A stretch of DNA of 61,942 nucleotides, filler included, from Bacteriovoracaceae bacterium (lineage in GTDB: Bacteria > Bdellovibrionota > Bacteriovoracia > Bacteriovoracales > Bacteriovoracaceae), in the NCBI GenBank assembly GCA_018649885.1. It is 6 parts of 6 records of this genome, joined end to end, with 100 filler letters (N's around TTAATTAATTAA, not from the genome) between each part and the next. Parts side by side here need not be neighbours in the genome. Positions count along the whole stretch, not along the records: positions 23,025 to 41,408 come from JABIHA010000147.1; 5 more parts are not named here. One strand, given 5' to 3'. The notes beneath the pieces are model-generated. The model saw only the letters and a program-made list of their open reading frames with translations, was not told the origin of the DNA and made no database searches. How positions within the stretch are numbered: the stretch's first letter is position 1; each line of letters opens with the position of its first letter. The position numbers were made by a program, and so were the translations under genes. Shown here one piece after another: positions 23,267-55,654 of this stretch.

Positions 23267-23310
23267 GTGAAAATTAGGGGCTTACTTCAAAAATTGGGCA
23301 CACCTCTACC

Positions 23311-24744: not shown

Positions 24745-25038
24745 CGAGGGAAAGTAAATTAAGCTAGGCCACTATTTCCACGGCGATTTAAAAAAAAGAA
24801 GCTTTATTTGGTTTTTGAAAAATTGGGACCTCTATTTCTCCCCTCGAAAACGCTTAAAACGGCGCTAAATCACCCGTTAATTTGACAAGAAAATCCTTAT
24901 GCTTAATAACTCTCATTATGTAGCACTAACAGAAGGGATAAAAGGTTAAACGTTTAGAGGAGAAAAGGTTAAACCTTTTAAGGGGTAAATTTTTAACTTG
25001 TCGCAAAAAAACAACTGCTAAGAATTAACTATCCCCTA

Positions 25039-25635
25039 TTATCTCATTTCTGAACATTCAGGTAAACCTGGAGGAAATGTCATTGGAGTAACTGTTAAAT
25101 CAAATGAATAGGAAGTTACTCCATGCCACCAACCATCATCAACTTCAATGGTGATCGTGGTCTTACCTACTTTTCCAAAAACGGGCATTAGAGTCAAATT
25201 CAAGTTTTTACCTCTAGCATTTGAGTCCTCAAGGTCATCTCCCCAGTACATAGGAGACTGATCTCCCCACATCTCTGTGATCATATCGTAGGTGGTAGTT
25301 ACAATATTTGATACAGGAAGAAGCATGGCATTTGAGCTTTTAATACTAATTATTAAAGAGTCATATTTATCTTCCCAAGAATTTATCCCCTCATCTAATT
25401 TAAAAATTATATTTTTTGCACTACAAGTTTCTTGAACACTAATGCCTTTCCCCGCGTAATCATCTTTTGGCACAATAATTGGTGCAGTATTTATCTGCTC
25501 TTCATATGAGTGGCCTAAAATTGAAGTAAAAAGGCATATTGATAGAATTAATATTCTCATCACAAGAGCTCCATTTCGCATATTAGCTGAGTAGTTATTT
25601 CGGTATTTCCACGAAATTACTTTTGAAGGTAACAA
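25039..25635 (-). CDS. Secreted single Ig/cadherin-like domain protein
   Basis: Signal peptide from the internal start MRILIL; NTAPII...DEG...SSN..LLP..NI...LTL.P..GK.G.TTITIEVDDG resembles the repeats in 9598-13545. Confidence 0.65.
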   Translation of the reverse strand: MLPSKVISWKYRNNYSANMRNGALVMRILILSICLFTSILGHSYEEQINTAPIIVPKDDYAGKGISVQETCSAKNIIFKLDEGINSWEDKYDSLIISIKSSNAMLLPVSNIVTTTYDMITEMWGDQSPMYWGDDLEDSNARGKNLNLTLMPVFGKVGKTTITIEVDDGWWHGVTSYSFDLTVTPMTFPPGLPECSEMR

Positions 25636-25952
25636 AACTTCTAAAAATATAGAAATAAAGGCCTCCGTCTACCGGCCTCCTCTTCCTTTCCTTGCTCCGG
25701 GCAAACTGTGATTTATCGAAAAAACTACTTATTTAACCCGCACTAGTCACTGCGAGTTATACGAATTGGCCCAGATTGATTGGGTCTATGCGATTACATT
25801 CAAAAAAATTTATTGTTTTAGAGTTTAAATTTGAGCTTCTGACGATTTGTTGAGATTTTTGATATGTCTTCCTCCCCTACCCTCTTTAAAAAAATAAAAA
25901 CTAGAATTTCTTAACCGAAACGCCAAAAGGCAAGGCAGTAAGAGCTTTTAGA

Positions 25953-26164
25953 GTTGCCAACTTGGCAACTTAACAACTTGCCAAGTTCTCAAGTTAACAA
26001 CTATTCAACTTGCCAAGTTTTCAAGTTAACAACTATTCAACTTGCCAAGTTTTCAAATTAACAACTTTTCAACTTGCCAAGTTTCCAAATTAACAACTTT
26101 TCAAGTTGCCAAGTATTCAAATTGCCAACTTTTCAACTTTTCAACTTGCCAATTTTCCAACTTG
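25953..26164. repeat. Octamer repeat array upstream of parA; putative centromere/operator
   Basis: 8-bp periodic CAA(C/G/A)T-based units arranged in a 32-bp higher-order repeat CAACTTGC-CAAGTTTT-CAAGTTAA-CAACTATT. Confidence 0.75.
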
Positions 26165-26205
26165 TAATAAAATCAAATTGATAACTTCTTTAGGAGTAGT
26201 AAAAA

Positions 26206-27075
26206 ATGGCAAAAATAATTTCACTTCTTAATAAAAAAGGTGGAGTAGGAAAGACAACTACTACAGTCCACATCGCATCCCGCTTGGCCGACATGGGTTA
26301 TAAGACTCTTATAATCGATGCTGATGTCTCACAAGGAAACGCAACTCTTCATTTAATGGGAGAGATCTGGAATGCTAAGGAGCATACGCCAGGACTTGGA
26401 TCTGTTTTTATCGAAGGAAGACCGCTTAATAAGGTCATCTATAATACAGATCGTGAAAATCTTTTCATCATCCCCAGTGAGAAATTCAACAAAATGGGGG
26501 AGAGCTACAATCTTGATATGATCCTCTCTAACTTTGGACCCAAGGGATATTTCTCTTTTAAAAAGCTAATTGAAAAATCAGGACTCTCTGAAAAACTAGA
26601 CTACATACTCTTTGATCTACCTCCAAGCCTAGGTCTTAGCGTTTCAGCAGCACTGATTGCTAGTGACTATGTACTGATTCCATTTAAGGTAGATGATTTT
26701 AGTAAAAATGCAGTGGTAGACACTGTTAAGACAGTTCTTGAAATCAAAGAAGACTACAACGAGAAACTTGAAATTCTAGGGGCCTTTGTCAGTCAAAATG
26801 ACAGAAGAAATAGAACAAATAATAAAATGATTGAAGAAGCACGTGTTCTATTTAAAGAAGCGGGAACAGAGATTTTGGAAGCAATGATCCCTGTCTATAA
26901 CAAAATGACAGTACTGCCTCGTGAGAGAAAGACTGTTTTTGATATAAAAGGCGCAAAGGTTGAGTCCATTAACTCATATATCGATTTAACAGATGAGATC
27001 TTAGAAAAAATCAATACCCACCAAGGATCAATGATTAGTGGAAAAAGAACTGAAATCACACTGGGAGCAAGATAA
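26206..27075 (+). CDS. parA: ParA/Soj partition ATPase
   Basis: KGGVGKTT deviant Walker A, IDAD.SQGNAT, FDLPPSLG, ALIASDYVLIP. Confidence 0.93.
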   Translation: MAKIISLLNKKGGVGKTTTTVHIASRLADMGYKTLIIDADVSQGNATLHLMGEIWNAKEHTPGLGSVFIEGRPLNKVIYNTDRENLFIIPSEKFNKMGESYNLDMILSNFGPKGYFSFKKLIEKSGLSEKLDYILFDLPPSLGLSVSAALIASDYVLIPFKVDDFSKNAVVDTVKTVLEIKEDYNEKLEILGAFVSQNDRRNRTNNKMIEEARVLFKEAGTEILEAMIPVYNKMTVLPRERKTVFDIKGAKVESINSYIDLTDEILEKINTHQGSMISGKRTEITLGAR

Positions 27076-27603
27076 ATGCAAACTACGAAAGCAAAAAAGA
27101 AAAAAGCACTCTTTGCAGCGCCATCAGCCAGTGCAGCCAACTTATTTGGAGACGATGAAGAAGAAGAAACTCCGAGTACGAAAGAAAGTAGGGTAGAAGA
27201 GAGTGCAAAAGCGCCAGAGCACATCATGCAAGCAGATGGAGTGATTGAGAGAGCTGTAGAGAAAGCAAAAGCTCCAGTAAAAAAGACATACCCTGAAAAT
27301 AGATACCAGGCCGAAAAAGTCGGGGAGCGTGAAAGACGCTTTGATAACTACACAAACAAAAAGGCCCAATTTATTGATGAAGACTTCGAATTTTTAAAAG
27401 AGCTTGAGATGCGTATTTCAAAAGCGAAAATCAAAGCAGGCATGGGAAGAATTCATAAAAATAGACTCACAGCTTCAACAATGAATAGAATTATCATGCA
27501 CAGCTTTTTAAAACGAATGAAGGGAAGAGTAGGGGAGATGGACCTTACCGATCTTGTCACAGAAGAGGGCTTTGAAGAGCTTTGTGAGAAAATGTTCGAT
27601 TAA
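27076..27603 (+). CDS. ParA partner; putative centromere-binding protein
   Basis: Starts immediately after the parA stop; disordered N-terminus and compact helical C-terminus, as in type Ib partition adaptors. Inferred from context. Confidence 0.55.
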   Translation: MQTTKAKKKKALFAAPSASAANLFGDDEEEETPSTKESRVEESAKAPEHIMQADGVIERAVEKAKAPVKKTYPENRYQAEKVGERERRFDNYTNKKAQFIDEDFEFLKELEMRISKAKIKAGMGRIHKNRLTASTMNRIIMHSFLKRMKGRVGEMDLTDLVTEEGFEELCEKMFD

Positions 27604-27607
27604 ATTA

Positions 27608-28558
27608 ATGAGAAATCTAAATAGACCGTTTTGTTGGATATTACTTATAAACCTTATATTTATAAGTAATATTCAATCCGCAATTACAATTGACCCTTCT
27701 AAAGCTCCAAAGAGAAAAAATGAATTAGGCATAATTGCAACGGAAAAAGGGGGCAGAATCATTTTGACTGGTTGTGAAATGTTTAATGCACTATTTTATT
27801 GTCACCTAGACCTTGGCTCGAGTTTCTCAATATTTCCTGAAGAAATTGTTGGAAATATAAAAAAAAAGATCTCTCAAAAAGAACATGAAAAATTATTTAA
27901 AGTACTACCGAAAAAAGTGAAAATTAAAAGTGTATTTCAAAAAACTATAGAGTTAGATAGCATTGAAATCCCTTATGTGAAAGTTGATGATTTGAAATTT
28001 AAAAAGGCCCAATTCTTAGTCAAACCCAACAAGGTTCTTTCATTGATTACCTTAGGTAACCATTATTTTTTGGATAAAACACTCGCCTTAGATTTTAGTA
28101 AGGGACAATTAAAAATTCACAATCAAAGGATTCCAAAAAGTTCTAAGTTGCATATTTTTCCTGCACGCAACGGACAAATTGCCATTCCTATTACAGTCGG
28201 TGATAAAAAAGTTAAATTAGCTTTCTTTGATACTGGATTTTCAAAATCTATGATTGACGAGGAGTTTTATAGAAAAAACAAGGCCCTATTTGCTACCGGT
28301 AGAACCTGGGTTTCTCCAACCAAGACCACTGATGCAACAGGTGCTACTGACTATGAAAGCAATGTATTCGTAACATTAAAAAAAATAAAAATAGGCAATG
28401 TTAGTTTTAATAATTTCCAATTTCTCGCTGGTAGAGTTAAAAATTTTACAAAAAAAACATTTAAAGTGGATGTGCCTATAGTTATTGGTGCAGATCTCAT
28501 CTCAAAGCAGAACTGGGTACTAGACTTTAAAAATCTTAGATGGATGAATTATAAATAA
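27608..28558 (+). CDS. Secreted two-domain retropepsin-like aspartyl protease
   Basis: HLDLGS/TLG and FFDTGF/VIGAD motif pairs; the signal peptide follows the ATG at 27608. Confidence 0.75.
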   Translation: MRNLNRPFCWILLINLIFISNIQSAITIDPSKAPKRKNELGIIATEKGGRIILTGCEMFNALFYCHLDLGSSFSIFPEEIVGNIKKKISQKEHEKLFKVLPKKVKIKSVFQKTIELDSIEIPYVKVDDLKFKKAQFLVKPNKVLSLITLGNHYFLDKTLALDFSKGQLKIHNQRIPKSSKLHIFPARNGQIAIPITVGDKKVKLAFFDTGFSKSMIDEEFYRKNKALFATGRTWVSPTKTTDATGATDYESNVFVTLKKIKIGNVSFNNFQFLAGRVKNFTKKTFKVDVPIVIGADLISKQNWVLDFKNLRWMNYK

Positions 28559-28812
28559 TAACAAACCTGTAAATTTATAATCTCGTAAAGCACTACCGCT
28601 TCGTCGCGTACTGTCACAAAAAGTCTTCTTACGAATCGAAACCTTTACTGGCCTTCAAATTCTTCTCTAAATCCTATTTAGAGTAAATCAATACAGATAT
28701 CTACTTAAGCTTTTAAAATTCAATTAAGGAGTGTTCTGTGAAGTGTGAACAACACTTCTGTTGAGAGACTAACGAATGAATCAATTTATCATTATGAAAG
28801 AGAAACTTTGAA

Positions 28813-29624
28813 ATTCCCCCAAATAGTACCGGGTGTATATATATAAATAATATACTTACATACAATACATACGCCCGGTACTATTTGAGGGAATAAGCAG
28901 CTTATTAACAACTTAAGCTTAAAATTCCCTCAAATAGTACCGGGTGTTTCCTCAAATAGTACCGCTCATTTCCGCAAATGGTACCGGTGAGTTCCCCAAA
29001 TAGTACCGGGCAAATCAAATTCCCTTGAATAGTACCACTCGAAAAAGGCAATTTTCCCCAAATAGTACCGGGGCTTCCCTCAAATGGTACCGCCCTCAAA
29101 GGTTCTAGGTGTGTGTGTTAAATCTCTCATCGCACTCGCGTCAAGTGCTTATAATTAAATGCTAAATTGTTTTTTCTAATGTGACAAACCCTGAAAGAGG
29201 AAGTGAAATTCCCTCAAATAGTACCAGGGGGGTAGTTCAAATTCCCGCTATCAGTACCGGTGTTGGAAGTTTTCCCTCGAATAGTACCAGTGCGTAGGAG
29301 AAATACCCGCTATCGGTACCGGTGCTGCTTAATATTTCCGCAAATGGTACCGGGGTAAGGGAGTTTTCCCTCAAATAGTACCGGTGTTAGCGCTAATTCC
29401 GTCTTGAAACTACTCGTTTCAGTTTTATACCGGTACCATTTGAGGGAATAAGCTTTCGGCCCGGTACCATTCAGGGGAATTTGAAAAACATGCGGTACTC
29501 TTAGCGGTTTTTTTAATTTGGGCGCTAGTAGGGGCGGTACTATTAGCGGGAATTTTTTAGATGCATCGCGATTAGACCGGTACTATTTGAGGGAAAAACT
29601 TGGGCCGGTACTATTTGAGGAAAT
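28813..29624. repeat. Iteron array (about 21 copies); putative plasmid replication origin
   Basis: Consensus TTCCCTCAAATAGTACCGG. A closely spaced direct cluster at 28924-29093, an AT-rich gap, a direct cluster with 31-32 bp spacing at 29208-29385, and inverted copies at 29430-29624 and 28875. Lies directly upstream of the Rep-like gene. Confidence 0.88.
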
Positions 29625-29675
29625 TTATGGACGGCCACGCAATCTACTGAGACAATCTAGGTGTAAATAAATTTT

Positions 29676-31250
29676 TTGGAGAGCCTCGTGGATCAAGTCC
29701 CGCTAGATTTAACTCAGGTAGAAGAAAGTAGTGTATCTCCAGAAGTTCTACCTATAGTTCCATCCCAAGATAATAAATTCAAAGTTGAAATTAACCTAGG
29801 CCTTGCCCTTCCTTTTAGATCTTATAAAAGAGGATCAGATGAAACTGATGGCGCTCAAAAGTCTGTGGTTAAATCCGTGGGCCCTGATGGAAGCCTCTAT
29901 AGAGTAGAAATTGAAACAAAAAGTGAAGAAGGCCCACTTGGTGGCCTTGATAACGATGTGCTGACAGTTCTTCTTACAATGGCCTGGGAGCAAAGAGACT
30001 ATAAATCAAACCAAACTAAAAGTAAGGGTTTCAGGGTCTACTATACAGTGACTGAAGTATGCAGAAGACTAAAGCTATCTGAGAACTCAAGAAACAAAGT
30101 AAAAAAATCTATTGAGAAGATAAAGTCCCAAAAGCTAAATATCAAAAACTTCATCTACAATAAATCAGAAAATAAAGCAGTCTTAAATGATGAAGAAACA
30201 AGAATCATACTAAAGTCGGGTAGGGTACGCGCCGCTCAAATGATGGATGAAGATGAATCAGATATCATGGCCACAAGCTATGTGGAGTTTGACGAGCCCA
30301 TTATAAAAAACCTTCACAATGAATATTTCTCAGTCATTAACCAAAAAGACTACCTCGCCCTTAGCTCAGGCTCTGAAAGAAGGGTAATCATCTACCTTCA
30401 ATCAAAAAGAAAGAAGTTTGGCGATGAGTACGCATTTGAGCTAACTGAGCTTGCAAATGTTCTAGGCCTTTCTGAGAGTAAGAAAAAAGGTGAGCTTATA
30501 AAAAAGTTCATGCAAAAAGTTAAAGATAAAATAGGCCTCATTGATTTTTCAATAAAAAAAATACGCGGAAAAGATGAATGGAACGTATTTGTTGAATTTA
30601 AATCAGATAGAGCAGAAATTGATAATTTTGTTGATCCATTTTATGCATCCCTTGTGAGCTATTTCGGAGAAGATAAACTAAGAGGCCTAGATGTTGCCGA
30701 ACTTGATATAGAAAACTGGAGACAAGAGTTCTCTGGAAAATTCAAAAGAGAAACTGGTAAAGATGAATTTATCTTTTCTAAAGAAAATCTTAACCCCGCA
30801 GAATTTTGTATTGATGTTACTCTCTATCAAATACTAAAAAAAGGCTACGTCCTTAAAACAACCTTTAAGGCCCTAGCAAGATCAATTCTAACTTCTATGA
30901 TTGATGGATTTCCAGAAATCCCTGATGGCTATAGATCATTTATCCATAAAAGAATGGAAAGTGAGAAAAAAGAAATTGCTCTTAAAAAAATGACAAAAGA
31001 AGTAGAGCTTAAAAAGAAACAAGAAGTCATTGAAGCAAAACGAATGGAAGACTCTTTTAACGAAATGTATGATGATCTTCTCATAAAAAATAAAGGCTTC
31101 ATGAGAGATATTGAAAAACGCGCTAAAGAATCCATCGGAGAAGATGAATCAGCCCCTTTGTACTCTCTCATGCTTGAAAATAAAATGCGTGAGATCGCAC
31201 GTGAAGATTTCGAAAACGGGGAATCGTTCGATTTCTTTAAAGATCACTAG
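29676..31250 (+). CDS. Plasmid replication initiator (winged-helix Rep-like)
   Basis: [15 protein letters not shown]...[13 protein letters not shown]...VKKSIEKI pattern and second w[15 protein letters not shown]; adjacent to the iterons. Confidence 0.75.
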
Positions 31251-31285
31251 CATTTGTAATTTTTTCACCACACAAGGCCTTCCCC

Positions 31286-33076
31286 ATGGACTCAAAAATC
31301 AAGGATCAAATTCTAGCTGCCACAAACTCAAAAAGAATTGAGAGCACTGAGCTTATTCAAAAGCTATGGAATGATTATGGTGATCTATTAAGAATTTATC
31401 TAAGTGGAGGTGAGTATAATAGTGTCATCCTAAAGCACATAAAAATACCAGACAATCAAAATCACCCAAAAGGATTTTCTGGAGATATCTCTAGAAAAAG
31501 AAAGATTAACTCATATCTTGTGGAAACAAACTGGTATGAAAACTATAATCACACTAATTTTTTAGATAACCATTCAAAAACTGCAAAAAAGCTTAAAACC
31601 TTTCAAAGCGGTGGTGAGTTTTTTATCCTTCTAGAAGATCTTGATGCCTCAGGATACAGCAAACGTCTGGAAGCTCCAGAGTTTAAAGAGATAAAGCTCG
31701 TTTTATCATGGCTTGCTAGCTTTCATGCAAAGTTTATGAATATCACACAAGCTGATCTTTGGGAGACTGGAACATATTGGCACCTTGAAACAAGGCCTGA
31801 CGAGCTAGTTAAGCTTCAAGATAAAAAATTAAAAGAGTTTGCACCACTGATTGATTCAAAATTAAGTAGTGCAAAATACCAAACCCTTGTTCACGGGGAC
31901 GCAAAGCTTGCAAATTTTTGTTTTTCAGATGATTTAGAAAGTGTGGCCGCTGTTGATTTTCAATACGTTGGTAATGGCACAGGAGTGAGAGATGTAGCTT
32001 ATTTTATTGGAAGTTGCATGGATGAGGTTGAGTGCAAGAAAAATGAGAGTGAGATTTTAGATTATTACTTTAATGAGCTAAGGTGTTTTTCAGATCTTGA
32101 TGAATGCCAGCACGCTGAGCTTGAATCTGAGTGGAGAGAGTTATACCCCTATGCTTGGGCCGATTTTCACCGCTTTTTAAAAGGCTGGAGCCCAGATCAC
32201 TGGAAGATAAATAACTATAGTGAAAAATTAAAAAATCAAGTGATCTCAAAGATTGAAGATGATCTATTAAGCTCCATGAAAAGTGCTTGCATAGAAGCTG
32301 GAAAAATCATTATGAGCTATTATAAAAGTGATTTTGAGATCTCAAAAAAAGAGGGATCAACACTTTCAAGCTCAGTTGTGACCGAAGTAGATATAAAATC
32401 TCAAAAATGTATTCTAGAAAATCTAGTTCAGACAATTAATACATATGACCTAGGCGTTTTATCAGAAGAAAAAAATGATGATGGATCAAGACTAGTTAAA
32501 GATTTCTTTTTTGCAATTGACCCACTTGATGGCACCTACTTTTTTAGCAGAGATGCTCCAGGGTTCTCTGTGTCAATTGCCCTGGTGGGTAGAGAGGGAG
32601 AGGCCACTGTCGGAGTTATCTATGATCCAGTAGGTAATACTCTTGTTCATGCAATAAAAGATAGGGGCTGTTATATAAATGATAAGATTCATAAAGTGGA
32701 AGCGGGGATAGGCTCAAACAAAAAAATAAGACTGTTTGCCGATCAAAGCCAAAAGGATGCTATAAATATCAAAACCCTTGAAGACAGCTTTGAAATTGAA
32801 TATACAGGAGGCGCTGTAATCAACTCCTTAAATGTTCTAACGACTAAAAATTCAACTTATTTTAAATATCCTAAAAAAGAGAAAGGCGGATGTGCCATTT
32901 GGGATTTAGCAGCGATTGATATTATATTTAAAGAAGCAAATGCCAGCATTACAAGTTTTGATGGTGAGAAACTTAGCTTTAACTCGGATGAGTCACATTA
33001 CTTTAATAAGGAAGGGCTAATGGTCTGTCATAATGAAGAGATACTAAAAAAAATAAAAGAAATGAAGTGTGAATGA
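31286..33076 (+). CDS. Fusion of APH/choline-kinase-like phosphotransferase and inositol monophosphatase/CysQ
   Basis: N-half: [25 protein letters not shown]-half: VTEVD, SEE, IDPLDGT, WDLAA. Confidence 0.87.
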
Positions 33077-33259
33077 TTTTTTGAACAACCAAAGAAGTGT
33101 GTTGGTGAGCAGGTGAGGTGTTCGCCGATAGGAAGGGAGACGGGAAAAACGTGAGTTGGTGGACGGAGTAAAACAAAAATCAAGTCAGCATGCATTCAAA
33201 CTCCAATAAATATAAAAAAGTATCAATATTCGTTTTTTTTTCAATATAGCCTGGATCTT

Positions 33260-33499
33260 TTGAGAATCTTCTATTCAAAATTAATTTTAAACTTTGAGCT
33301 TCAAGATGAAGCTCATTTCATAAACCCTAAAAACGACGGGGAGTGGCCTACTGTAAAGGGAAGGCGGGAGAAGTCAGATAACACTGATGAGGAATGCCTT
33401 TTAAGAGAAATTTCAGAAGAATTTGGTGCTAAAATGAGGGGTCTAAGTACCTCAACCAGACCCCTTACAAGTTATCAAAAACACCAACCTGCCATTTAA
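33260..33499 (+). pseudogene. Nudix hydrolase remnant
   Basis: Nudix-box-like GRREKSDNTDEECLLREISEEFG in a short ORF lacking a convincing start or complete C-terminus. Confidence 0.55.
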
Positions 33500-33723
33500 G
33501 TAACCTTTTTTTATGAGTCAACAGTATTGGAAAATGTAGCATCAACAATAAGCTTGGGTGACATTTTTAAAGCGGAAAAAATATTTCAAGCTAAAAGAAC
33601 TTCAATAAAACCAAGGCCTTCAAATACATAACTTAGTCAGCTAAAAAGCTTGTTGAGTCAACGGGGCCAGAGAGAGGGAATACAATTATCATTTTACTGA
33701 GTCATATCGGGGACTTATTTCTG

Positions 33724-33751
33724 ATGCCCCATAATAATTGTTATAAGGCAT
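33724..33751. other. dif-like tyrosine recombinase site
   Basis: 11-6-11 layout ATGCCCCATAA-TAATTG-TTATAAGGCAT, with CATAA/TTAT inner ends. Confidence 0.5.
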
Positions 33752-33833
33752 TGAAATTATTGACTTACAATAACGGTTATTTAATTCACCTTTTCTTAAG
33801 CACCTGATCTTCCGTGAAATATTTCGTGACATT

Positions 33834-33851
33834 TGTAATATATATGTTACA
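33834..33851. promoter_or_regulatory. Palindromic operator candidate upstream of the TA pair
   Basis: TGTAATATATATGTTACA imperfect palindrome 25 bp upstream of the 33877 start. Confidence 0.45.
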
Positions 33852-33876
33852 ATAAATTTGAAGGGAATCAGGCTTT

Positions 33877-34269
33877 ATGGCAAGTAAGGATACGTTTACC
33901 GCAGAAGTTCCAAAGGAATTTGAGACGACTGATGAGTACACAAAGTGGAAAGAAGCGATTGATGGATCGCTGAAAGACTACGTTGAGGCCGCCGAGTCTA
34001 AGATAGAAAATGACGGACTTATCACCAATGCCAAAAAATTAGAAAATGGTCTGTATGAAAGAAAGTGGAAAAATGGATTAAGAGTATATTTCTCAGTGGT
34101 TATTAAAGATGAACAAAAGACACTTTTAATATTAGGCAGTGGTAAAGGAAAAGAGCAAGCAAAGGCCATTAAGCAGTGTGAAAAAATTCTTGAAGAATAT
34201 AATGTATATACTGGTGAAATAAAATTTAATGATGGAGGCAATCATGGCACTTCGAAAAAATTTGAATAA
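33877..34269 (+). CDS. RelE/HigB-like addiction-module toxin
   Basis: T.EY.KW...KL..GLYE.KW..GLRVYF......L.LG..K..Q.K.I pattern; toxin-first order. Confidence 0.75.
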   Translation: MASKDTFTAEVPKEFETTDEYTKWKEAIDGSLKDYVEAAESKIENDGLITNAKKLENGLYERKWKNGLRVYFSVVIKDEQKTLLILGSGKGKEQAKAIKQCEKILEEYNVYTGEIKFNDGGNHGTSKKFE

Positions 34270-34531
34270 AAAAGTAAAACAATCTAGGTTTGCAGATCCA
34301 AAATATATTTTGGAGGCCTTGAAAAATTTCATGAATGATGGTGAGTTTCACTCTATGACTGATCTCATTAGTGCTTATATTAAGCACTCCCCTAAATACT
34401 TAACTCAAGAAGAGTTCGCAGCTGCAATCGGTACTAATAGGCAAACCCTTCACCGAATGATGGCACATGAAAATGTCTCTTTAAATTTATTTTTTAGTGC
34501 TTTAGAGCAAATTCATGACGATGCTCAATAG
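34229..34531 (+). CDS. HTH (XRE) antitoxin
   Basis: TQEEFAAAIGTNRQTLHRM HTH; overlaps the toxin gene. Confidence 0.75.
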   Translation: MMEAIMALRKNLNKKVKQSRFADPKYILEALKNFMNDGEFHSMTDLISAYIKHSPKYLTQEEFAAAIGTNRQTLHRMMAHENVSLNLFFSALEQIHDDAQ

Positions 34532-34661
34532 AGTCTCTTCAAGGCCATTTAAAGAATAAAAACTTATTTTGTATGAGCTGAAATTGCCTACCACTCCAAA
34601 GCCGCCTTAGTATTCTATTTAGTAGACTTAGTTATAGATTGGATCAATTCCGAAACGAAGA

Positions 34662-35267
34662 TCAGGCAGCTTTCAGGATAGTATCAATATAGCCTTGGAT
34701 TTCTTGATTCCAAAATGTTTTCAAGTTTTCATCTTGAGATGTAAAGCAGGCCATCATTTTTATTATGCTTGTCTCACAAATCTGGCTTGGTCTCTGAAGA
34801 ACCAATTCTGAGATCGAAATCAATTGAACCATCATCTTTGGTTTAAACTGAATATTAACCTTCTTCCTATCATCATCTGAATTAAACGAACTAAGAATGT
34901 CTTTATTCATTAAACTATTAAATCGAGATACAAGATCAGTATTTATATCAATATGATTTATATAAACGGTGACTAACGCTCTCATAAGGGCTGCTTGCGT
35001 GACACCGGGATAATCTTCAATAAATTTATCAAGACACATAGTCAGGTTTTTAGATAAATGACATTGTACTTGAAACTTGTCACGCTTTTGATGATATCTC
35101 TCATTAAGCCATTCCATATAGGCACTCTCAAAGTCTTTTCCTCTAAGGTAGGCTCCACAATCATTGCAAACTAAAGTATTATGATTAAATTTCATACCAA
35201 GGAAATCCAGCTCAGCATCTTCTTTTGAGAAATTTTTATGATTACAATCCATGTCCAGCACCTTCAA
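34662..35267 (-). CDS. Zinc-ribbon protein; MqsA-like antitoxin candidate
   Basis: N-terminal C.H...VCNDCG zinc ribbon followed by two ribbon-helix-helix-like segments; downstream of a small gene. Confidence 0.5.
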   Translation of the reverse strand: MKVLDMDCNHKNFSKEDAELDFLGMKFNHNTLVCNDCGAYLRGKDFESAYMEWLNERYHQKRDKFQVQCHLSKNLTMCLDKFIEDYPGVTQAALMRALVTVYINHIDINTDLVSRFNSLMNKDILSSFNSDDDRKKVNIQFKPKMMVQLISISELVLQRPSQICETSIIKMMACFTSQDENLKTFWNQEIQGYIDTILKAA

Positions 35268-35301
35268 CTTACACTTAATACAATTTAAAAACTAAGATAA
35301 C

Positions 35302-35682
35302 TTATTTTACTACAGTGAGCTTCGGAGTAGATTTTTTAAAGGATTGGATCTCTACACCTCTTGGATCATCAATTTCAAAGAAAAATCCCTTCAAATATAT
35401 TTTTATACTATGACCCATTACTTCAAATTCATCTTCGATACTAAATACCCACTTAAAACCTGTTTCTGAATATTTGCCCTCGTCACTTTCTCTGGGAGAC
35501 ATTTTCAGAGGGACACTTCTTCCAACTTGCAAAGAGTTAAGATACCTTTCAAGCATCTCTTTAGATAAATTCTCTGGTCTTTTCTCCCAGTATTCAAGAT
35601 CGTTTAAGCCTGCGTATTTCAATTTTTTTAGAAAGTCTTCCTGCTTATCCTGAATGAGATTTTTTAGTTCTTCCTTGTCCAT
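35302..35682 (-). CDS. Small protein; MqsR/RelE-like toxin candidate
   Basis: C-terminal W.F.......IYLKG.F......G..IQSF pattern; upstream of the zinc-ribbon gene. Confidence 0.45.
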   Translation of the reverse strand: MDKEELKNLIQDKQEDFLKKLKYAGLNDLEYWEKRPENLSKEMLERYLNSLQVGRSVPLKMSPRESDEGKYSETGFKWVFSIEDEFEVMGHSIKIYLKGFFFEIDDPRGVEIQSFKKSTPKLTVVK

Positions 35683-35739
35683 CCCATATTCCCTTATAAT
35701 TTAACCAGCTTCTCTTTAAACCGTAAATGAGGTGGGATA

Positions 35740-35815
35740 TACCTCATCCGCTGTAGCCCTGGTAGTATATACAGCATCCGCTGTAAAGTAAAGATCTGTT
35801 ACCTTATCTGCTGTA
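35740..35815. promoter_or_regulatory. Three 16-bp operator-like repeats at 30-bp period
   Basis: TACCTCATCCGCTGTA (35740), TACAGCATCCGCTGTA (35770, palindromic arms) and TACCTTATCTGCTGTA (35800). Confidence 0.65.
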
Positions 35816-35982
35816 ATGCATGTAAAATCAATCGGTTACGATGTGGAATCTGGTGATGATACCTGAACTTTAGGTGATTTTTTTAAAAAGACCATCAAAC
35901 TTACTTTCATTAGGCTTTTTCTGGAAACACTGGAAGTATCAGGAACAACAAAATTATCCAAACGAGTAGTTAAAATGATCTT

Positions 35983-36348
35983 TTAATTATAACTTTCCAT
36001 ATTTGTACAAGATAAAGTGTAGATGTCCTTTTTAACATTTAAGATGACGGTTGCTTTATTTACTCCCTCAGAGGTTTTTTCAACCCTCTTGTGGTTTAGA
36101 GACAAAACTATTCCATATTGAAAAGGAAGAAAAAGCACTTCAGCGTGAACGTCGTCTTTATCGCCATTATAATATTCGGTAGACTCTTCTTCATAATCAT
36201 CACCCCTTGAAGCGATTAGAGAAATTTCCTCTTTTTGATTTTTTAGAAAAGAACAATCAAGGCTACCAGAAAAATCTGAATCGGCAGCATGTAAAGTAGC
36301 AACACACATCAGTGCTACTAAAACAGCATTCAAAAGTAATTTTGTCAC
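35983..36348 (-). CDS. Secreted hypothetical protein
   Basis: Signal peptide ending TLHA; Cys near each end of the mature part. Confidence 0.7.
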   Translation of the reverse strand: MTKLLLNAVLVALMCVATLHAADSDFSGSLDCSFLKNQKEEISLIASRGDDYEEESTEYYNGDKDDVHAEVLFLPFQYGIVLSLNHKRVEKTSEGVNKATVILNVKKDIYTLSCTNMESYN

Positions 36349-36506
36349 TGATCCCCTCGTCTTATTAAGATATTTTTAATACAACAAGTGTATCCACACT
36401 CTAAAACTAGGTAACTCCCCTGTTTGAAAAGATCAATATGGGTGGTTTCTTTGCCAAAGAAAATTCAAAAAAGAAATGGGCTTGCCAATGAAAAATTGCC
36501 AATATT

Positions 36507-36539
36507 AAATCCGTAAGTAACTTTGTTACTTACGGATTT
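36507..36539 (-). terminator. Perfect 15-bp inverted repeat; probable terminator of the regulator-peptide operon
   Basis: AAATCCGTAAGTAAC-ttt-GTTACTTACGGATTT, 65 bp downstream of the 36605 stop. Confidence 0.55.
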
Positions 36540-36604
36540 CTTTAATAGAAATGTTTTTATATGAAAAGAAGTAAAATTAAGAATTTGTACAATTTAGGCA
36601 TTTT

Positions 36605-36874
36605 TTAGCCACCACCACCAGTGCCAGTCGAATCACCAGATCGCATCATTGTCTTACCAGTAAACCTAAATGCATTAATGTCTTCACTTTGGATTACAGA
36701 TCCATTATTTAAGATGACTTTTGATGGAAACTTATCACTGTAGTTATTCTTGATCGTTTCTTTAATGTCTCTATCCGTATAGAACTGATGGCCTTTAGTT
36801 GCCACCCAGCTAAGTTTGCTAGTTGCAAAAGAAATATTGGATGCAAATATAAGAGTTAGTATTAAAAATTTCAC
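36605..36874 (-). CDS. Small secreted protein ending SGDSTGTGGGG
   Basis: Signal peptide (MKFLILTLIFASNISFA); start overlaps the regulator stop codon. Confidence 0.8.
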   Translation of the reverse strand: MKFLILTLIFASNISFATSKLSWVATKGHQFYTDRDIKETIKNNYSDKFPSKVILNNGSVIQSEDINAFRFTGKTMMRSGDSTGTGGGG

Positions 36875-37665
36875 TGCTGAACCTCCACTTCCTTGGTGGG
36901 TTTTGTATCAATAGTATCAGCTACCATGCCGATGAAAAAAGTAGATTGATCTGAAGGATCTTTAGTTTTAAATTTTCCAGACCCAAATTCATCTTTTATT
37001 TTGTTAAAGGCATCCTGAAGAGTTTCTCTAACAAACTTCATGGCCTCTTCCCTATCACCTACTTCTGTTTGAAAACTACACCAGTTTTCTCCAAGACCAA
37101 ATAGCTCTTCCCTATAGCCTTTGTCTAAACATACTTGAAACATTTTCTTTATTGTCGCTTGAGAATATGTTCTTGGCTGGGTCCATGGTTTAATATAGCC
37201 GGCATCATCTTCTGCAAGAATGCCTTGCTGAATAAGTCTATTGAGATTTCTATCACCCTGAGCACCTAGCTCGCGGACAACTTCCTCACGAGATGTACCC
37301 TTTTGTGTGTAAGCAAGAAGTAATGTGAAACAAAACTCTTCTTTGGTTAACAGTTCATCCACTTCAGGTGAAAGAGGTTTATAATTTTTTAAATGCTTCA
37401 AATTTTCCTGAAAGCTACCTTGAAGTTTAGGATTAACCTCTCCCAATACTTCTATTAATCGGTGCTGATTACCAGTACCAATTACAATGTCAGTTAAAAG
37501 CTCATAGCTTGGATTAGTGTTTAAGTTCTCAATCCTATTAATGGATGATTGCTTAATCCCAATCAGCTGAGCGATTCGAGATGAACTCTTAATGTGTGGG
37601 TGTTTTGCCTTAAAACCATCAATCAGTTTTTTGGCAATAACACATGTACTAGAAGGCATTTCCAC
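36871..37665 (-). CDS. HTH transcriptional regulator resembling the TIGR02147/DUF4423 family
   Basis: N-terminal XRE-like HTH (SSRIAQLIGIKQSSINRIEN), central winged-helix-like segment and C-terminal alpha/beta domain. The family name is from resemblance only. Confidence 0.6.
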   Translation of the reverse strand: MEMPSSTCVIAKKLIDGFKAKHPHIKSSSRIAQLIGIKQSSINRIENLNTNPSYELLTDIVIGTGNQHRLIEVLGEVNPKLQGSFQENLKHLKNYKPLSPEVDELLTKEEFCFTLLLAYTQKGTSREEVVRELGAQGDRNLNRLIQQGILAEDDAGYIKPWTQPRTYSQATIKKMFQVCLDKGYREELFGLGENWCSFQTEVGDREEAMKFVRETLQDAFNKIKDEFGSGKFKTKDPSDQSTFFIGMVADTIDTKPTKEVEVQQ

Positions 37666-37901
37666 TAAAAACTCCTACCCATGATGAATTATTATTCTTG
37701 GTGGGTAACATAAGTGTTGATAACTGGCTCGTCAAGTAGTCGTGGGTAATTACCTTGTTTCACTTGTGAAATAGCTATTGATTTAGTTGTTTAGGGCCGG
37801 TTTTATGGCTGAAATTAATTTAATAGCGACCTTGAAAACAAAACTAATGGGTAGTGAGTCATAAGTATTAAAAGCTGAAGGTCATAAAAAAGAAGGTAGT
37901 A

Positions 37902-38159
37902 ATGAAGAAATACACGAAGATAGTGCGATGCGCGATGGGCGTTTTCACTTTATCTTTCACTTTGGCCAGTGGACCTCTTCCTGAGCGTGGAAATGACTCA
38001 GGCGGCGGAAAAGTGTGTACCAATTGGTCCAGTGAACTGACAGCCGCTAAGTCTAGAAAAGGTGATGACGGTAGCGGTGGCGGATTAAAGCTCGAAGATA
38101 CATTTGATCAACTGGTGGTGGGCCCGGGCCTAAAAGCACAGGGGATGTATAAATTTTAA
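37902..38159 (+). CDS. Small secreted protein with two GGG motifs
   Basis: Signal-like N-terminus; RGNDSGGG and KGDDGSGGG. Confidence 0.7.
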   Translation: MKKYTKIVRCAMGVFTLSFTLASGPLPERGNDSGGGKVCTNWSSELTAAKSRKGDDGSGGGLKLEDTFDQLVVGPGLKAQGMYKF

Positions 38160-38197
38160 TAACTTTATAAATAACAACAACCAACAGGAGAAAAGAG

Positions 38198-38395
38198 ATG
38201 AAAGTTTTAATTGTAGTTTTAAGTTTAATGATGGCAGTAGGCGCTTTTGCAAAAGGCGACAGAGATGGATCAATGACCAAAAAGGGTGATAGAGACAGCT
38301 CAATAAAAAAAAGAGGAAATGGAAATGATGACCTTGAAGGACCAAAAGAAATTAGAGGCGGTGGAGTGAAGACAAAAGGAACTGGGGACGTATAA
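38198..38395 (+). CDS. Small secreted repeat peptide precursor
   Basis: AGGAG RBS; signal peptide ending AFA; KGDRDGSMTK-KGDRDSSIK-KRGNGNDD repeats; RGGG. Confidence 0.75.
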   Translation: MKVLIVVLSLMMAVGAFAKGDRDGSMTKKGDRDSSIKKRGNGNDDLEGPKEIRGGGVKTKGTGDV

Positions 38396-38431
38396 GGGTC
38401 TTTTTTTGGGGGTTCATTAAGGGGGAAAGAG

Positions 38432-38848
38432 ATGAAAAAAATACTATTAATAATTATGACTCTAGCGCTTGTAAGTTGCGGAAGTGAAGATAACGGCGTA
38501 GCCGCAGGTGACGGATCAGGCGGTGGGAAGAAGAGTATTAATGGTGAGAGTGCAGATTCTTACTATGATAGCTTCATGAGCGTTGAGGGTAATATGAAAG
38601 TTCTCACAGACAATTTATCAATCGCTTTCACAGGTCACCAATTGATTCTAAAAAAAGATATGGGCGAGTACGAAATTGGTGATCCTCAAGGCTTTTTAGT
38701 CTACGAGGGTAAATACCAAGTTTCAGGGCTAAATCTCAACCTTACGGGCTTCGGAGTCGGCTCAGGGATTCAGTCAAATGGAAAAAAGTGCATCGAGGTC
38801 ATTCCAGACGGTAAAACGCCGATGGAAAGAGCACTTTTTTGCTTATAA
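38432..38848 (+). CDS. Lipoprotein with GDGSGGG motif
   Basis: Lipobox LVSC followed by AAGDGSGGG. Confidence 0.8.
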   Translation: MKKILLIIMTLALVSCGSEDNGVAAGDGSGGGKKSINGESADSYYDSFMSVEGNMKVLTDNLSIAFTGHQLILKKDMGEYEIGDPQGFLVYEGKYQVSGLNLNLTGFGVGSGIQSNGKKCIEVIPDGKTPMERALFCL

Positions 38849-38887
38849 AATAAGAATTTAAATTTAGCACAAAATACGGGGTTTATT

Positions 38888-40663
38888 ATGGGTAAGTTAA
38901 TTTCTTACGGGGTAATGCTTTGCCTAATTTTTTCATGCAGTTTTAAAAAAAAGAATGCTGATAGTGGTGCTTTGGGTCTTTCCAAAAAAGGTGGGGTTTC
39001 AAAGCACCTTGATCCAAAACAAGACTCTGATGGCGATATGATCACAGATCTTGAAGAAATTAGTCGAGGCCTTGATCCACTTGTTTCTAATATCCCGAAG
39101 ATTCGAGTAGAAATGATCTCTCAGGGATCAATCGACTTATACTCAAAAAGCTTGGATCATTTTGTAAAAAAATACTCGGTCGGCATTAGTTTATCAGAAC
39201 TACCTTTTCAGTCACATATAAGACAAATTGTGACAAGAAAAGTATCAAAATTTGTCTTGAGCTCTGATCCAAATGATTTAATTTGGGTGGGAGGAATCTA
39301 TGGATACCTAAAAGTTTCTGATTTATCACAAAATTCTCTAAATCTAAGTAGAATGAATGATTTCTTATTTTTAAATGACATTGAATTTGAAAACACTTCT
39401 GAGATACTACTAGATTTATCATTTTCTCTAAGTCCAGAAAGTGGACAGGACCTATTTGAGAAAATCACTGATATTGACTATACTTTTTTCACTGAGAGTC
39501 CATTAAAGCCGATCGCTAATTCTAAATTTCCATTCTATGTGAGTACAGATGCAGTAGAAACGAAAATAATAGAAAGTATTCCACCAAAGACTTTCGTTGA
39601 TAGTTTTCTCGTGGGAGATGATCTTATATTCAAGATGAATGATTTCAACATCGTGTATTTTGAAGACCTAGGAAAAGAAGATATTAAATTTAGCACCTTA
39701 CTTGAAAGCATTCGAAAGAAAACGGTTGAAGTAATAAAAATAGCTCCTGGCAATGTGGATCACAAATTCATTGCTATTGGAGGGAGTGGATCAATATCTG
39801 TTGAAAAATTAATTGAGAGTATTTCAAAAAAAGGCTTTCAATTTAAAGATAGAGAAATTTTCTCGATTGATGAGCTTGAAAATAGCTCGGATCTAAGAAT
39901 CACAAAAGATAGAATCCAGAAAATGCTTGATCATAGTCACTGGTACGCTCTAAATAATAGGCACCAACTCTTATTTAGAGAATCAAAGCTCACTGCAGGC
40001 GATATCATTGTTGTGGCGTATATGAGTGGAAGAGAGCTTTTAGATTCATCAAAGCGTTCAAAATTTAAATCATTTGATACTATTGGTTTGCCTTCTCAGA
40101 CTCACCGAGTTTCTCAAGTGCTTCCAAACTCAAAAATTAAAATAAACCTTCTTGGAAAAGTAAGACACTTTGACAAAAAAGTATTCGGGAGCGTCCCCCA
40201 GTACAAATGCAGCTTTAGCTACGTGCAATTAAAAGAAAACAAAAGAGAGACTGATTTTTCAAAAGGACTTGAAAGTGAGGACATAAAGCTCATTGGCATT
40301 ACAATTGGAAAAGATGAAATCAACTTACATGAATTTTCAAAAAAATATGCAACGATCGTTGATTACAATGATAGCACAAAGGTATTATCACTAGAGTTTG
40401 ATTTATCAAAAATTGATTTTCCATACTCGGTAGATAGCCCACTTTTTTTAAAAACCTATGGAACAAATTCTCAGATTCAGCTTGGGGCCTTAAATGTTTC
40501 AGGGGATTCAACGTGTCCAGACATTCTAAGAGGATATAAAAGCGGACACTATGATAGTACTTCTTGGGGGCATAAATACCTAAAACCAAAAAAGAAGACT
40601 CTCAAAAACTTTCTCTATTTTTCTGCTGATATCGTAATGGAGAATTCACAATTTTTTAAATAA
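38888..40663 (+). CDS. Lipoprotein with Ca-binding DSDGD motif
   Basis: Lipobox IFSC; DSDGDMITDLEE..G.DP.V..IP; directly upstream of the pilin-like gene. Confidence 0.65.
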   Translation: MGKLISYGVMLCLIFSCSFKKKNADSGALGLSKKGGVSKHLDPKQDSDGDMITDLEEISRGLDPLVSNIPKIRVEMISQGSIDLYSKSLDHFVKKYSVGISLSELPFQSHIRQIVTRKVSKFVLSSDPNDLIWVGGIYGYLKVSDLSQNSLNLSRMNDFLFLNDIEFENTSEILLDLSFSLSPESGQDLFEKITDIDYTFFTESPLKPIANSKFPFYVSTDAVETKIIESIPPKTFVDSFLVGDDLIFKMNDFNIVYFEDLGKEDIKFSTLLESIRKKTVEVIKIAPGNVDHKFIAIGGSGSISVEKLIESISKKGFQFKDREIFSIDELENSSDLRITKDRIQKMLDHSHWYALNNRHQLLFRESKLTAGDIIVVAYMSGRELLDSSKRSKFKSFDTIGLPSQTHRVSQVLPNSKIKINLLGKVRHFDKKVFGSVPQYKCSFSYVQLKENKRETDFSKGLESEDIKLIGITIGKDEINLHEFSKKYATIVDYNDSTKVLSLEFDLSKIDFPYSVDSPLFLKTYGTNSQIQLGALNVSGDSTCPDILRGYKSGHYDSTSWGHKYLKPKKKTLKNFLYFSADIVMENSQFFK

Positions 40664-40686
40664 ATATAAATACTAAGGAGAAATGA

Positions 40687-40941
40687 ATGAAATATCTACT
40701 GATATTACTTCCAAGTATTTGCTTTGGTGCAAGATCACTTGAAAGCATGGCAAAAAGCGCTGAAGGATCTCTTACAAGACTTGGCTCTGGAGTCGTAGTG
40801 ATTGGTCTCATTTGGGCCGGATACTTGTATGTTAAGGGCTCGCAGGAAGGGCGCGAAAAGTTAGGAGGCGCAGTTGCTGCTGCAATTTTAATTTTCGGAG
40901 CAAGCGGAATAATGGCCCTTTTAAAAAAGATTACAGGCTAG
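40687..40941 (+). CDS. VirB2/TrbC-like conjugative pilin
   Basis: 84 aa with a signal peptide and two hydrophobic helices ending LIFGA..I; followed by VirB3/VirB4-like genes. Confidence 0.75.
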   Translation: MKYLLILLPSICFGARSLESMAKSAEGSLTRLGSGVVVIGLIWAGYLYVKGSQEGREKLGGAVAAAILIFGASGIMALLKKITG

Positions 40942-40945
40942 TCTT

Positions 40946-41203
40946 ATGAATAGACGCTACCCACAATACTTAAAATTGGGCCCAAAAATACTGGGACTTG
41001 GAATATCAGAATTTTTTGTCCTGGGATTAATTATTCTAGTGTGTGGCCCAATACTAAATCAGTCTTTTATGTCTATCGCTGTGAGTGCCATATACATCAT
41101 ATTTATCAAGACCTATAGGCTGCTTCTTCCCCCCCACTACCTTTGGTTTCGCTTAAGAAAGAAGCGAATCATCTATCTAAGGCGGGCAGTAAGTGGAAAG
41201 TAA
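40946..41203 (+). CDS. VirB3/TraL-like membrane protein
   Basis: YP.YL....KILGL...E followed by two TM helices; located after the pilin. Confidence 0.65.
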   Translation: MNRRYPQYLKLGPKILGLGISEFFVLGLIILVCGPILNQSFMSIAVSAIYIIFIKTYRLLLPPHYLWFRLRKKRIIYLRRAVSGK

Positions 41204-41408
41204 AAAAGCATTCAAGATTGATTTTCAAGATATAGACCAAATGAGAGATCATGATAAAAACGTCTACCTTGAATCTATAAAGCATTCATTTAACACAGCA
41301 CCCTCAAGCTTTGTTAAATTTTTTTATTTCGGTGGTTCGTCTCATCTCTACCATGGAGCCGGCAGCTTCCCCATCGCCGGCGCCAAGTCCACGCTCGTGG
41401 ATAATCCG
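41193..41408 (+). CDS. Partial gene, probably the VirB4/TraC-like ATPase N-terminus (cut by the contig end)
   Basis: Overlaps the VirB3-like stop; assignment from gene order only. Confidence 0.4.
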
Positions 41409-41508
41409 NNNNNNNNNNNNNNNNNNNNNNNNNNNNNNNNNNNNNNNNNNNNTTAATTAATTAANNNNNNNNNNNNNNNNNNNNNNNNNNNNNNNNNNNN
41501 NNNNNNNN

Positions 41509-49545: not shown

Positions 49546-49975
49546 CTAAAATTGCCTTTTAATTTTGAGTCATACGTCTTCAGTTAAAATTGTAATTACT
49601 ACAGAACAATTTTAACAAAGGAAAAACGTATGACTCATCAACAGTATCTCANNNNNNNNNNNNNNNNNNNNNNNNNNNNNNNNNNNNNNNNNNNNTTAAT
49701 TAATTAANNNNNNNNNNNNNNNNNNNNNNNNNNNNNNNNNNNNNNNNNNNNCCATACCTGCCGAAAGTTAAACATTGAATTTTGGGATTACCTGCAAGAC
49801 AGATTAAATAAAAAATTCAAAATCCCAGCTCTACAAAACCTGATTGAAATTGCTTAGTTAGAAATCTAGCCTCTTTTTATTGAGTAGTTACCCCAAATCT
49901 GACTAAAAGCTAAACAATAACCCGTCAATTTTTCACAATCTCCCTATGTAAGCACCTAAAATCTCGAAGCAATTG

Positions 49976-55548: not shown

Positions 55549-55654
55549 NNNNNNNNNNNNNNNNNNNNNNNNNNNNNNNNNNNNNNNNNNNNTTAATTAA
55601 TTAANNNNNNNNNNNNNNNNNNNNNNNNNNNNNNNNNNNNNNNNNNNNAATATC

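Follow-up and report, generated by a model that had tools for sequence, protein, structure and literature searches.

A helix-turn-helix regulator and its exported, glycine-tailed partner opposite a type IV secretion operon in a Bacteriovoracaceae bacterium

In the RRNPP pairs of regulator and exported peptide (Rap-Phr, PlcR-PapR, PrgX and AimR-AimP among them), the active part of the peptide is usually its last 4-10 residues, and some of these pairs gate the transfer of mobile elements. ImmR of ICEBs1 is an XRE-type repressor divergent from a conjugation operon, and regulators of the ToxR type combine a DNA-binding head inside the cell, one membrane segment and an ectodomain outside it in a single chain. 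To our knowledge, Firmicutes are the only bacteria in which self-made exported peptides are known to control conjugation, and there the control rests on receptors with tetratricopeptide repeats (TPRs). As excerpted, PMC10075063 gives the RRNPP signature as five points: a propeptide of 10-100 amino acids (aa), export by Sec, a receptor of 250-500 aa, TPRs that bind the peptide, and adjacent genes. On pLS20, the XRE regulator Rco is encoded divergently from the transfer operon, and a secreted peptide finally relieves repression (excerpts of PMC7430634 and PMC8014075). Here we describe a locus within a 61,942-base stretch of DNA from a Bacteriovoracaceae bacterium (the window, meaning the whole stretch that was analysed) in which the gene for a helix-turn-helix (HTH) regulator, REG, overlaps that for an exported protein with an oligoglycine tail, P1, and is transcribed away from an operon for a type IV secretion system (T4SS).

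The regulator gene (36871..37665, minus strand) encodes 264 aa, and its stop codon overlaps by 4 nt, in the sequence GTGA, the GTG start of the gene for P1 (36605..36874, minus strand; 89 aa). As sequence comparison indicates, REG and an overlapping, exported, glycine-tailed partner make up a conserved gene pair, and the pair probably switches the conjugation operon that it faces. Set against the RRNPP signature in the excerpts of PMC10075063, REG/P1 shows four of the five points: P1 falls within the size range of the propeptides and is flagged for Sec export by our own heuristic signal-peptide rule, REG falls within the size range of the receptors, and the two genes are adjacent, here with the 4-nt overlap. 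The defining point, the TPR, is absent; REG instead joins an XRE HTH to a winged helix, and the host appears to be a diderm. The partners described here are also larger and carry a conserved hairpin, their motif can be N-terminal or internal, and forms exist in which regulator and partner are fused. Though not a member of RRNPP, the cassette may work like one.

Other described regulators share different parts of the arrangement. Common to Rco, ImmR and REG are an XRE HTH regulator transcribed away from a transfer operon and a short shared control region with repeated operators, represented here by candidate boxes; those systems, however, use a TPR anti-repressor (Rap) or a protease (ImmA), whereas the only conserved companion of REG is the exported, glycine-tailed protein. 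The ToxR topology is matched by fused members of the REG family, but in the window REG is soluble, its partner is encoded separately and exported, with a signal-peptidase site, and the DNA-binding fold differs; the REG reading frame ends without a hydrophobic segment and so lacks the one-chain architecture of ToxR. The TIGR02147 ('Fsuc_second')/DUF4423 regulators, which are remotely homologous to REG and similar to it in length, are multi-copy in this genome as well, and the next gene, which often overlaps, encodes a signal-peptide protein with a terminal glycine motif. That protein is zincin-like (GNGG...HExxH) and has 240-620 aa, whereas the REG partner has 80-190 aa, in the REG subfamily the motif takes the form of an oligoglycine tail at the C-terminus, and the pair lies opposite a T4SS operon. 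TIGR02147 regulators, many of them followed by exported GNGG proteins of 240-620 aa that often carry HExxH, were noted on G000 contigs C8, C16, C36, C60, C72, C84, C107, C122 and C143 (L039-L048 and others). The literature on TIGR02147/DUF4423 yielded only a DUF4423 protein listed in a Bdellovibrio proteome table, and searches at the level of listings and abstracts, for RRNPP systems in Gram-negative conjugation and for conjugation or T4SS in Bdellovibrio-like bacteria, returned no description of such a pair. We regard the REG/partner cassette as undescribed in the literature searched.

The regulator, its partner and their recurrence

When the open reading frames (ORFs) of the window were read, every gene and motif named in an earlier note on this DNA was present where that note had placed it. 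By heuristic rule, P1 begins with a signal-peptide-like segment (MKFLILTLIFASNISFA, followed by TS) that has a lysine at position 2, a hydrophobic core and a cleavage site between SFA and TS. It continues with a beta-hairpin motif, VILNNGSVIQSEDI, and ends in RSGDSTGTGGGG; the tail SGDSTGTGGGG (codons at 36608..36640, minus strand) begins after the last basic residue, R78. The AlphaFold2 (AF2) model of P1, a hairpin with a disordered tail, has low confidence (predicted local distance difference test, pLDDT, 53) and was too poor for a fold search, and a look-up in the ESM Atlas gave unnamed clusters only (0.87, below the lead threshold).

A REG profile search of the assembly returned five copies, one on the contig that carries the locus (C138) and the others on C32, C135, C86 and C82; the assembly consists of 151 contigs, its DNA is found in marine metagenomes, and the paralogues may stem from different strains. 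In each of the five pairs, the partner gene and the REG stop share 4 nt, and the partner combines a signal-peptide-like start and an AxA-type site with a terminal GGG, GGGG or GGGGG; the five partners are mutually only 22-28% identical. The genome has 27,371 ORFs with 50 aa or more, and an exact GGG ending occurs in 6 of them, 5 of which are the REG partners (leaving 1 among the 27,366 remaining ORFs). The GGG end of the partners is far beyond chance.

Of 36 other genomes from this taxonomic family, 27 contain relatives of REG, whereas 24 genomes from 14 other families of the phylum contain none, and a search of 1.84 billion representative proteins with the REG family gave 670 matches at E <= 0.001. 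A signal-peptide ORF starts between -43 and +26 nt from the REG stop at 40 of 50 REG hits in other genomes; with the C82 copy of the present genome included the figure is 41 of 51, and 21 of these 41 partners overlap the stop by 4 nt, the counts not being independent since the related genomes are kin. Across loci the partners range from 52 to 193 aa and are very diverse in sequence, and an alignment read by eye suggests that many have in common a hairpin-like motif (hydrophobic-x-L-K-D-G-x-x-hydrophobic-x-x-x-E).

The glycine motif, defined by a regular expression covering GGG, GNGG, or G[DEN]xxGxG plus a one-residue-shorter form of the latter, was matched by 32 of 45 partners, in 25 of the 45 near a terminus of the mature protein. 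It takes three forms, namely a C-terminal tail (as on C138), a glycine run directly after the signal peptide, and GE(V/F)TG(A/G)G once or twice, and it is kept in partners from different genera that are only about 20% identical. Among the other signal-peptide-like ORFs of this genome, the same expression matched 265 of 2,135 anywhere in the sequence and 43 of 2,135 near the signal peptide. This difference ties the motif to the regulators, and its rarity in the rest of the secretome rules out the reading of it as a general export tag. The motif is thus conserved and linked to REG homologues, and the outcome that the earlier note had named as refuting its proposal did not occur. A set of loci with GEVTGAG-type partners (L017, L018, L026, L027, L029, L031, L033 and L049-L052) has a conserved divergent gene about 1.1 kb upstream of REG, for a secreted protein starting ...LG.PGYGG.GCP.G.ASVTLSPD, which suggests a second, T4SS-independent type of regulon.

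Natural fusions bind the two proteins further. Of the 150 best family representatives, eight are single chains in which REG is followed by a hydrophobic segment and an ectodomain. Six of the eight have the glycine motif, which stands at the very end of four chains and in the interior of two. An AxA-like signal-peptidase site, judged by eye, follows the hydrophobic segment in all eight. The junction lacks a methionine in several fused proteins, which argues against simple frameshift artefacts. Because the REG parts of the fused proteins have diverged into at least three groups (23-61% identity in BLAST-aligned pairs, with no alignment for 3 of 28 pairs), the fusion is either old or has arisen repeatedly. 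The existence of such fusions argues that regulator and exported protein work together, beyond mere co-expression. In a different combination, P0083 and P0136, cytoplasmic proteins of 620-660 aa, join the REG domain with a histidine kinase and a receiver domain in one chain, and L021 has a fusion of this type as well.

As for the regulator itself, by predicted fold residues 1-80 of REG form an XRE-type HTH and residues of about 97-180 a winged helix, and the C-terminal part is helical. The AF2 model (pLDDT 92.8) has both DNA-binding folds; fold searches matched residues 1-80 to XRE regulators (Z 6.2-7.4) and residues 97-180 to winged helices of the ArsR/MarR/MecI/TubR type, and the best fold match for residues 97-252 was 4g6q, a protein of unknown function (Z 9.1). 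In Pfam, HTH_3 (PF01381) at the N-terminus scored 22.8 bits against a cut-off of 23, and a search of NCBIfam gave no match. No TPR family was found in Pfam up to E 1, and no TPR appeared in the AF2 model or the fold searches; these three agree with the earlier note that the regulator lacks TPRs, which rules out RRNPP membership for REG/P1.

The same note had expected REG to belong to TIGR02147/DUF4423, and this holds at the level of the superfamily. The two family models gave no match to REG up to E 1, and the C135 paralogue stayed below both cut-offs (12.7 bits against 50 for TIGR02147, 12.5 against 30 for DUF4423). When 81 REG-family sequences were aligned by hhalign with 10 TIGR02147 paralogues of the genome, however, the two profiles matched over 229 collinear columns (98.3% probability, E 2e-14), and this remote homology indicates that REG represents a sister family inside the TIGR02147/DUF4423 superfamily. 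The genome holds at least 22 true TIGR02147 paralogues, none of which is a copy of REG. A word-based homologue search with REG matched only itself and the C32 copy, the REG locus had one match among metagenome contigs, which was identical, and a pattern search of the genome contigs with alignment A1 produced 223 pattern matches, none confirmed. Marine metagenome runs from several studies contain this stretch. In one RNA-library run, two contigs cover 36898-37228 within REG, where DNA carry-over is possible; the rest had no cover in that run, including nearly all of P1 (its first base lies in a near-zero-depth bin) and all of P3-P5, the first genes of the facing operon.

REG and P3 are separated by a shared control region of 236 bp (37666..37901) with four (A/G)TGGGTA(A/G) boxes, starting at 37676 on the minus strand and at 37702, 37743 and 37848 on the plus strand. 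The genome-wide frequency of the box predicts 0.09 occurrences against the four observed, and the same four stand in the C32 copy, so that we treat them as candidate operators; a scan for promoters and terminators found sites no more numerous than in shuffled sequences. The C138 and C32 loci form a mosaic. Window positions 37560-37960, which hold the control region and the starts of REG and P3, have 92% mean column identity (alignment A5), and REG residues 1-60 are 95% identical. Identity falls to about 50% over residues 81-197, 28% over residues 198-264 and 22% in the partner P1, rises to 91% in P5, drops to 27% in P6 and returns to 87-96% in VirB2-B4; at the DNA level, nothing aligned over P1, the 3' end of REG or P6. 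The DNA-binding head and the operators thus stay the same while the REG C-terminus and P1 both change, as would be expected if these last two determined a specificity.

The facing operon and its genomic setting

Divergently from REG, on the plus strand, runs an operon whose conserved part begins with P6, a 591-aa lipoprotein with a DSDGD...GLDP motif (38888..40663) and the first conserved gene of this type of T4SS operon. It is followed by a VirB2/TrbC-type pilin (40687..40941; Pfam TrbC PF04956, 36.3 bits against a cut-off of 27.9, E 6.8e-9), by a small VirB3/TraL-like membrane protein (40946..41203) that is weakly supported by TraL (E 0.0039, below cut-off) and by its conserved position, with a 32% identical copy on C135, and by the N-terminus of a VirB4/TraC-like ATPase with weak TraC similarity (41193..41408), which the contig end cuts. 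The contig continues on C144, whose start has a 47-aa identical overlap with the VirB4 N-terminus and which encodes P-loop_TraG (VirB4; 55.1 bits), CagX/VirB9 (36.1), TrbI/VirB10 (44.9) and the coupling protein TraG-D_C (54.6). Parts of a conjugative T4SS present on C138 and C144 together are therefore the VirB2 pilin, the VirB4 ATPase, VirB9, VirB10 and the coupling protein; for a relaxase, C144 gave a sub-threshold Replic_Relax match only (21.1 bits against 25.3). Searched against plasmids, VirB4 matched TraC genes at only 24-27% identity. The lipoproteins and the VirB9/VirB10-type genes point to a diderm host.

The divergent link between pair and T4SS operon, which the earlier note had read from this one locus, recurs in four genera. 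Tail-type pairs stand divergent from P6-like lipoprotein-VirB2-B3-B4 genes on C138, C32 and C135 of this genome and on G015:C10 and G022:C4, and a further tail-type pair, on G035:C6, lies about 8 kb from a VirB4 gene of the same type, which gives six places where a glycine-tailed pair is within about 8 kb of this T4SS type. P6 homologues precede VirB2/B3/B4 on C135 and in G015 and G022. The tail-type pair on G015:C7 has a P6-like neighbour at the contig start, and that of G017 is cut by a contig end. The VirB4 query found nothing in G011 and G023, which have tail-type pairs, nor in G003, G009, G013 and G032, which are rich in non-tail REG copies; the non-tail copies of G035 are on contigs other than those with its VirB4 genes. 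Away from T4SS genes, the C86 pair faces two P4-like genes, a HATPase_c gene and a gene for a 912-aa protein, and the C82 pair is followed by a receiver-domain gene.

Between REG and P6 lie three genes for exported proteins, each preceded by a purine-rich ribosome-binding site, which the earlier note had made part of the circuit. P3 (37902..38159, plus strand; 85 aa) is Gly/Asp-rich, with RGNDSGGG and KGDDGSGGG, has GAAGG as its ribosome-binding site and a 47% identical copy on C32. P4 (38198..38395, plus strand; 65 aa), also Gly/Asp-rich, carries KGDRD twice, GNGNDDLEGPKEIR and RGGG, and has copies on C32 (94% identity over 53 aa) and, twice, on C86. P5 (38432..38848, plus strand) is a 138-aa lipoprotein with an LVSC lipobox and AGDGSGGG in its tether, copied on C32 at 91% identity. 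The motifs are present as described, but genes like P3, P4 and P5 are absent from the related T4SS loci read (G015 and G022); P4 found no other cluster among 5.8 billion proteins, and only itself in a word-based homologue search. For these reasons the conserved core is REG and its partner facing P6-VirB2-B3-B4, with P3-P5 as local, lineage-specific additions seen only in this genome. At window positions 38245-38356, metagenome contigs from three runs match P4 and diverge after 38356 into the longer, C32-type P4, both forms occurring in the same samples.

P6 is hypervariable, with 27% identity between the C138 and C32 copies (the latter at L001:719-2425) amid neighbours that are 91-92% identical, and in several genera P6-like lipoproteins with a DxDGD...P motif head this type of T4SS operon, perhaps as a factor for specificity at the surface. 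The VirB2-type pilin of the window ends in ...KKITG. The C-terminal glycine of Agrobacterium VirB2 and of RP4 TrbC is the residue joined during pilin cyclisation, and oligoglycine tails might meet the same enzyme. At the C135 locus (L004:5593-9182), two exported HExxH-type proteins and two Rce1/CPBP-type membrane proteases, possible processing enzymes, are encoded between the REG pair and the T4SS operon.

The window chains several contigs by five linkers of the form N44-TTAATTAATTAA-N44 (5944-6043, 22925-23024, 41409-41508, 49652-49751 and 55549-55648) and is not one molecule, so that two genes with a linker between them do not adjoin; the genes for a response regulator, Hsp20 and Lon after 41509 are separated in this way from the T4SS genes. 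The locus sits on C138 (window 23025-41408, 18,384 bp), which ends within the VirB4-like gene and additionally encodes an IS91-type transposase, ParA and a RelE/Xre-like pair. The last of these, at 33877-34531, is a RelE/ParE-like gene (TIGR02683, E 1e-7, below cut-off) overlapping an Xre-like gene, and is likely a toxin-antitoxin pair. The description of the contig as plasmid-like could not be established: no replication gene was recognised on C138, and in one relative a T4SS module of the same type is located within a 1.02-Mb contig, so that an integrative element is just as possible as a plasmid.

Possible roles of the exported partner

In the model that we infer, REG and P1 would act as a single unit that controls the T4SS operon opposite. 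REG would bind the four TGGGTA boxes in the shared control region and set transcription in both directions, into the two-gene operon of REG and P1 and into P3-P4-P5-P6-VirB2-B3-B4. Because the genes overlap, P1 would be made in fixed proportion to REG; it would be exported by Sec, released by signal peptidase and serve as the extracytoplasmic arm of the circuit, a self-made signal that would act through its oligoglycine tail, which cleavage behind the conserved basic residue might set free. Specificity would reside in the C-terminal part of REG and in P1, and feedback to REG could run through re-import or a third component. That P1 feeds back on REG in this way is the reading we favour, tentatively. 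In its favour, the partner in split pairs, which are the majority, has no cytoplasmic part, and the fusions keep their signal-peptidase sites; 14 of 15 tail-type partners have their last lysine or arginine 8-13 residues from the end, and serine comes next in all five of this genome; and the genome encodes six OppA-type binding proteins, which are permissive only for peptide import. A narrower version, in which a released, oligoglycine-tailed peptide of 7-12 residues is re-imported and sensed by a non-TPR regulator of the TIGR02147 superfamily to control conjugation, with 'pherotypes' exchanged by joint replacement of the REG C-terminal part and the partner, seems to us unlikely.

Several observations weigh against a self-made signal that controls conjugation. 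The model of REG contains two domains of DNA-binding type only and no recognisable peptide-binding domain such as a TPR, and co-folding of REG (81-row alignment) with mature P1 (residues 18-89, 12-row alignment) gave a score of 0.00, which speaks neither for nor against an interaction. No partner ORF was seen at 10 of the 51 REG loci, and 13 of the 45 partners escape the regular expression, with signal peptides and motif classes assigned by simple home-made rules and by eye rather than by SignalP. The motif is N-terminal in the mature protein or internal in many relatives, as in the GEVTGAG type, which misfits a simple rule of C-terminal peptides. The tails, almost purely Gly, Ser, Asp, Thr and Asn, hold little sequence information, and mature partners of 70-170 aa with a common conserved hairpin are bigger than the propeptides of known peptide systems. 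As to the mosaic, joint replacement is usual for linked genes in any case, and the C138 and C32 copies possibly come from different strains in a metagenome-derived assembly. The control of conjugation proposed in the earlier note stands in so far as tail-type pairs recur beside T4SS genes; the cassette as such is not specific to conjugation, since two of the five pairs of this genome, like most family members, have no T4SS adjoining them.

These observations leave room for other roles, of which the most substantial makes P1 an output rather than an input: REG would be an ordinary autoregulated repressor or activator, and P1 a co-expressed exported product such as an envelope, exclusion or immunity factor, its motif being a tether, a processing site or a sorting tag. 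We take this seriously but doubt it. The sister family speaks for it, as the TIGR02147 regulators of this genome precede exported HExxH proteins with GNGG just after the signal peptide, which are enzyme-like rather than signal-like; so does the occurrence of the motif in the tether of the lipoprotein P5 and in P6 homologues, and so do the two cassettes that vary between C138 and C32, the REG C-terminus with P1 and the surface lipoprotein P6, which suit exclusion or surface specificity. A regulator fused to a mere target product would be unexpected, however, yet the fusions recur in diverged lineages, and a motif so rare near the signal peptides of the remaining secretome does not look like a common sorting device. 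Pairs that occur without any T4SS rule out entry exclusion as the general role of the partner.

The fusions themselves invite a sensor of the ToxR kind, in which the fused form would be ancestral and working, with the HTH inside, one membrane segment and a glycine-tailed ectodomain sensing an outside cue, and in which the split partner would stay at the membrane and signal through a third protein, for example a histidine kinase and response regulator. The eight fused representatives fit this, as do the REG-histidine kinase-receiver fusions P0083 and P0136, the HATPase_c gene beside the C86 pair and the receiver-domain gene beside the C82 pair. We nonetheless consider it quite unlikely: split pairs far outnumber fused ones (41 of 51 loci are split, and 8 of 150 representatives are fused); no more than 2-4 residues precede the hydrophobic segment of a split partner, which has a canonical AxA site besides and can therefore make no cytoplasmic contact with REG; and no third gene is conserved across the loci read. 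That the glycine runs are functionless low-complexity sequence, arising by chance or composition in small disordered ORFs, would accord with the low-confidence model of P1 and the orphan status of P3 and P4, but is highly improbable given the GGG end in five of five partners against a single other ORF and the persistence of the motif in partners from different genera with about 20% identity.

Meaning for the family and its regulators

Where the known systems rest on TPR receptors, a regulator of a different fold is here bound as tightly to an exported partner, by gene overlap, natural fusions and joint divergence, and faces a transfer operon in several diderm genera. If the partner does signal, control by a regulator and its exported signal would have been invented independently here, and the large, uncharacterised TIGR02147/DUF4423 superfamily would gain its first functional handle. 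If the narrower reading of a released peptide is true, the cassette would be the first of a peptide type for cell-cell signalling to control conjugation in a diderm bacterium, and dozens of secreted-protein operons throughout this family of marine Bdellovibrio-like bacteria would be governed in the same way. Even if the partner does not signal, its terminal oligoglycine tag still marks an undescribed event of recognition or processing in the envelope of the family.

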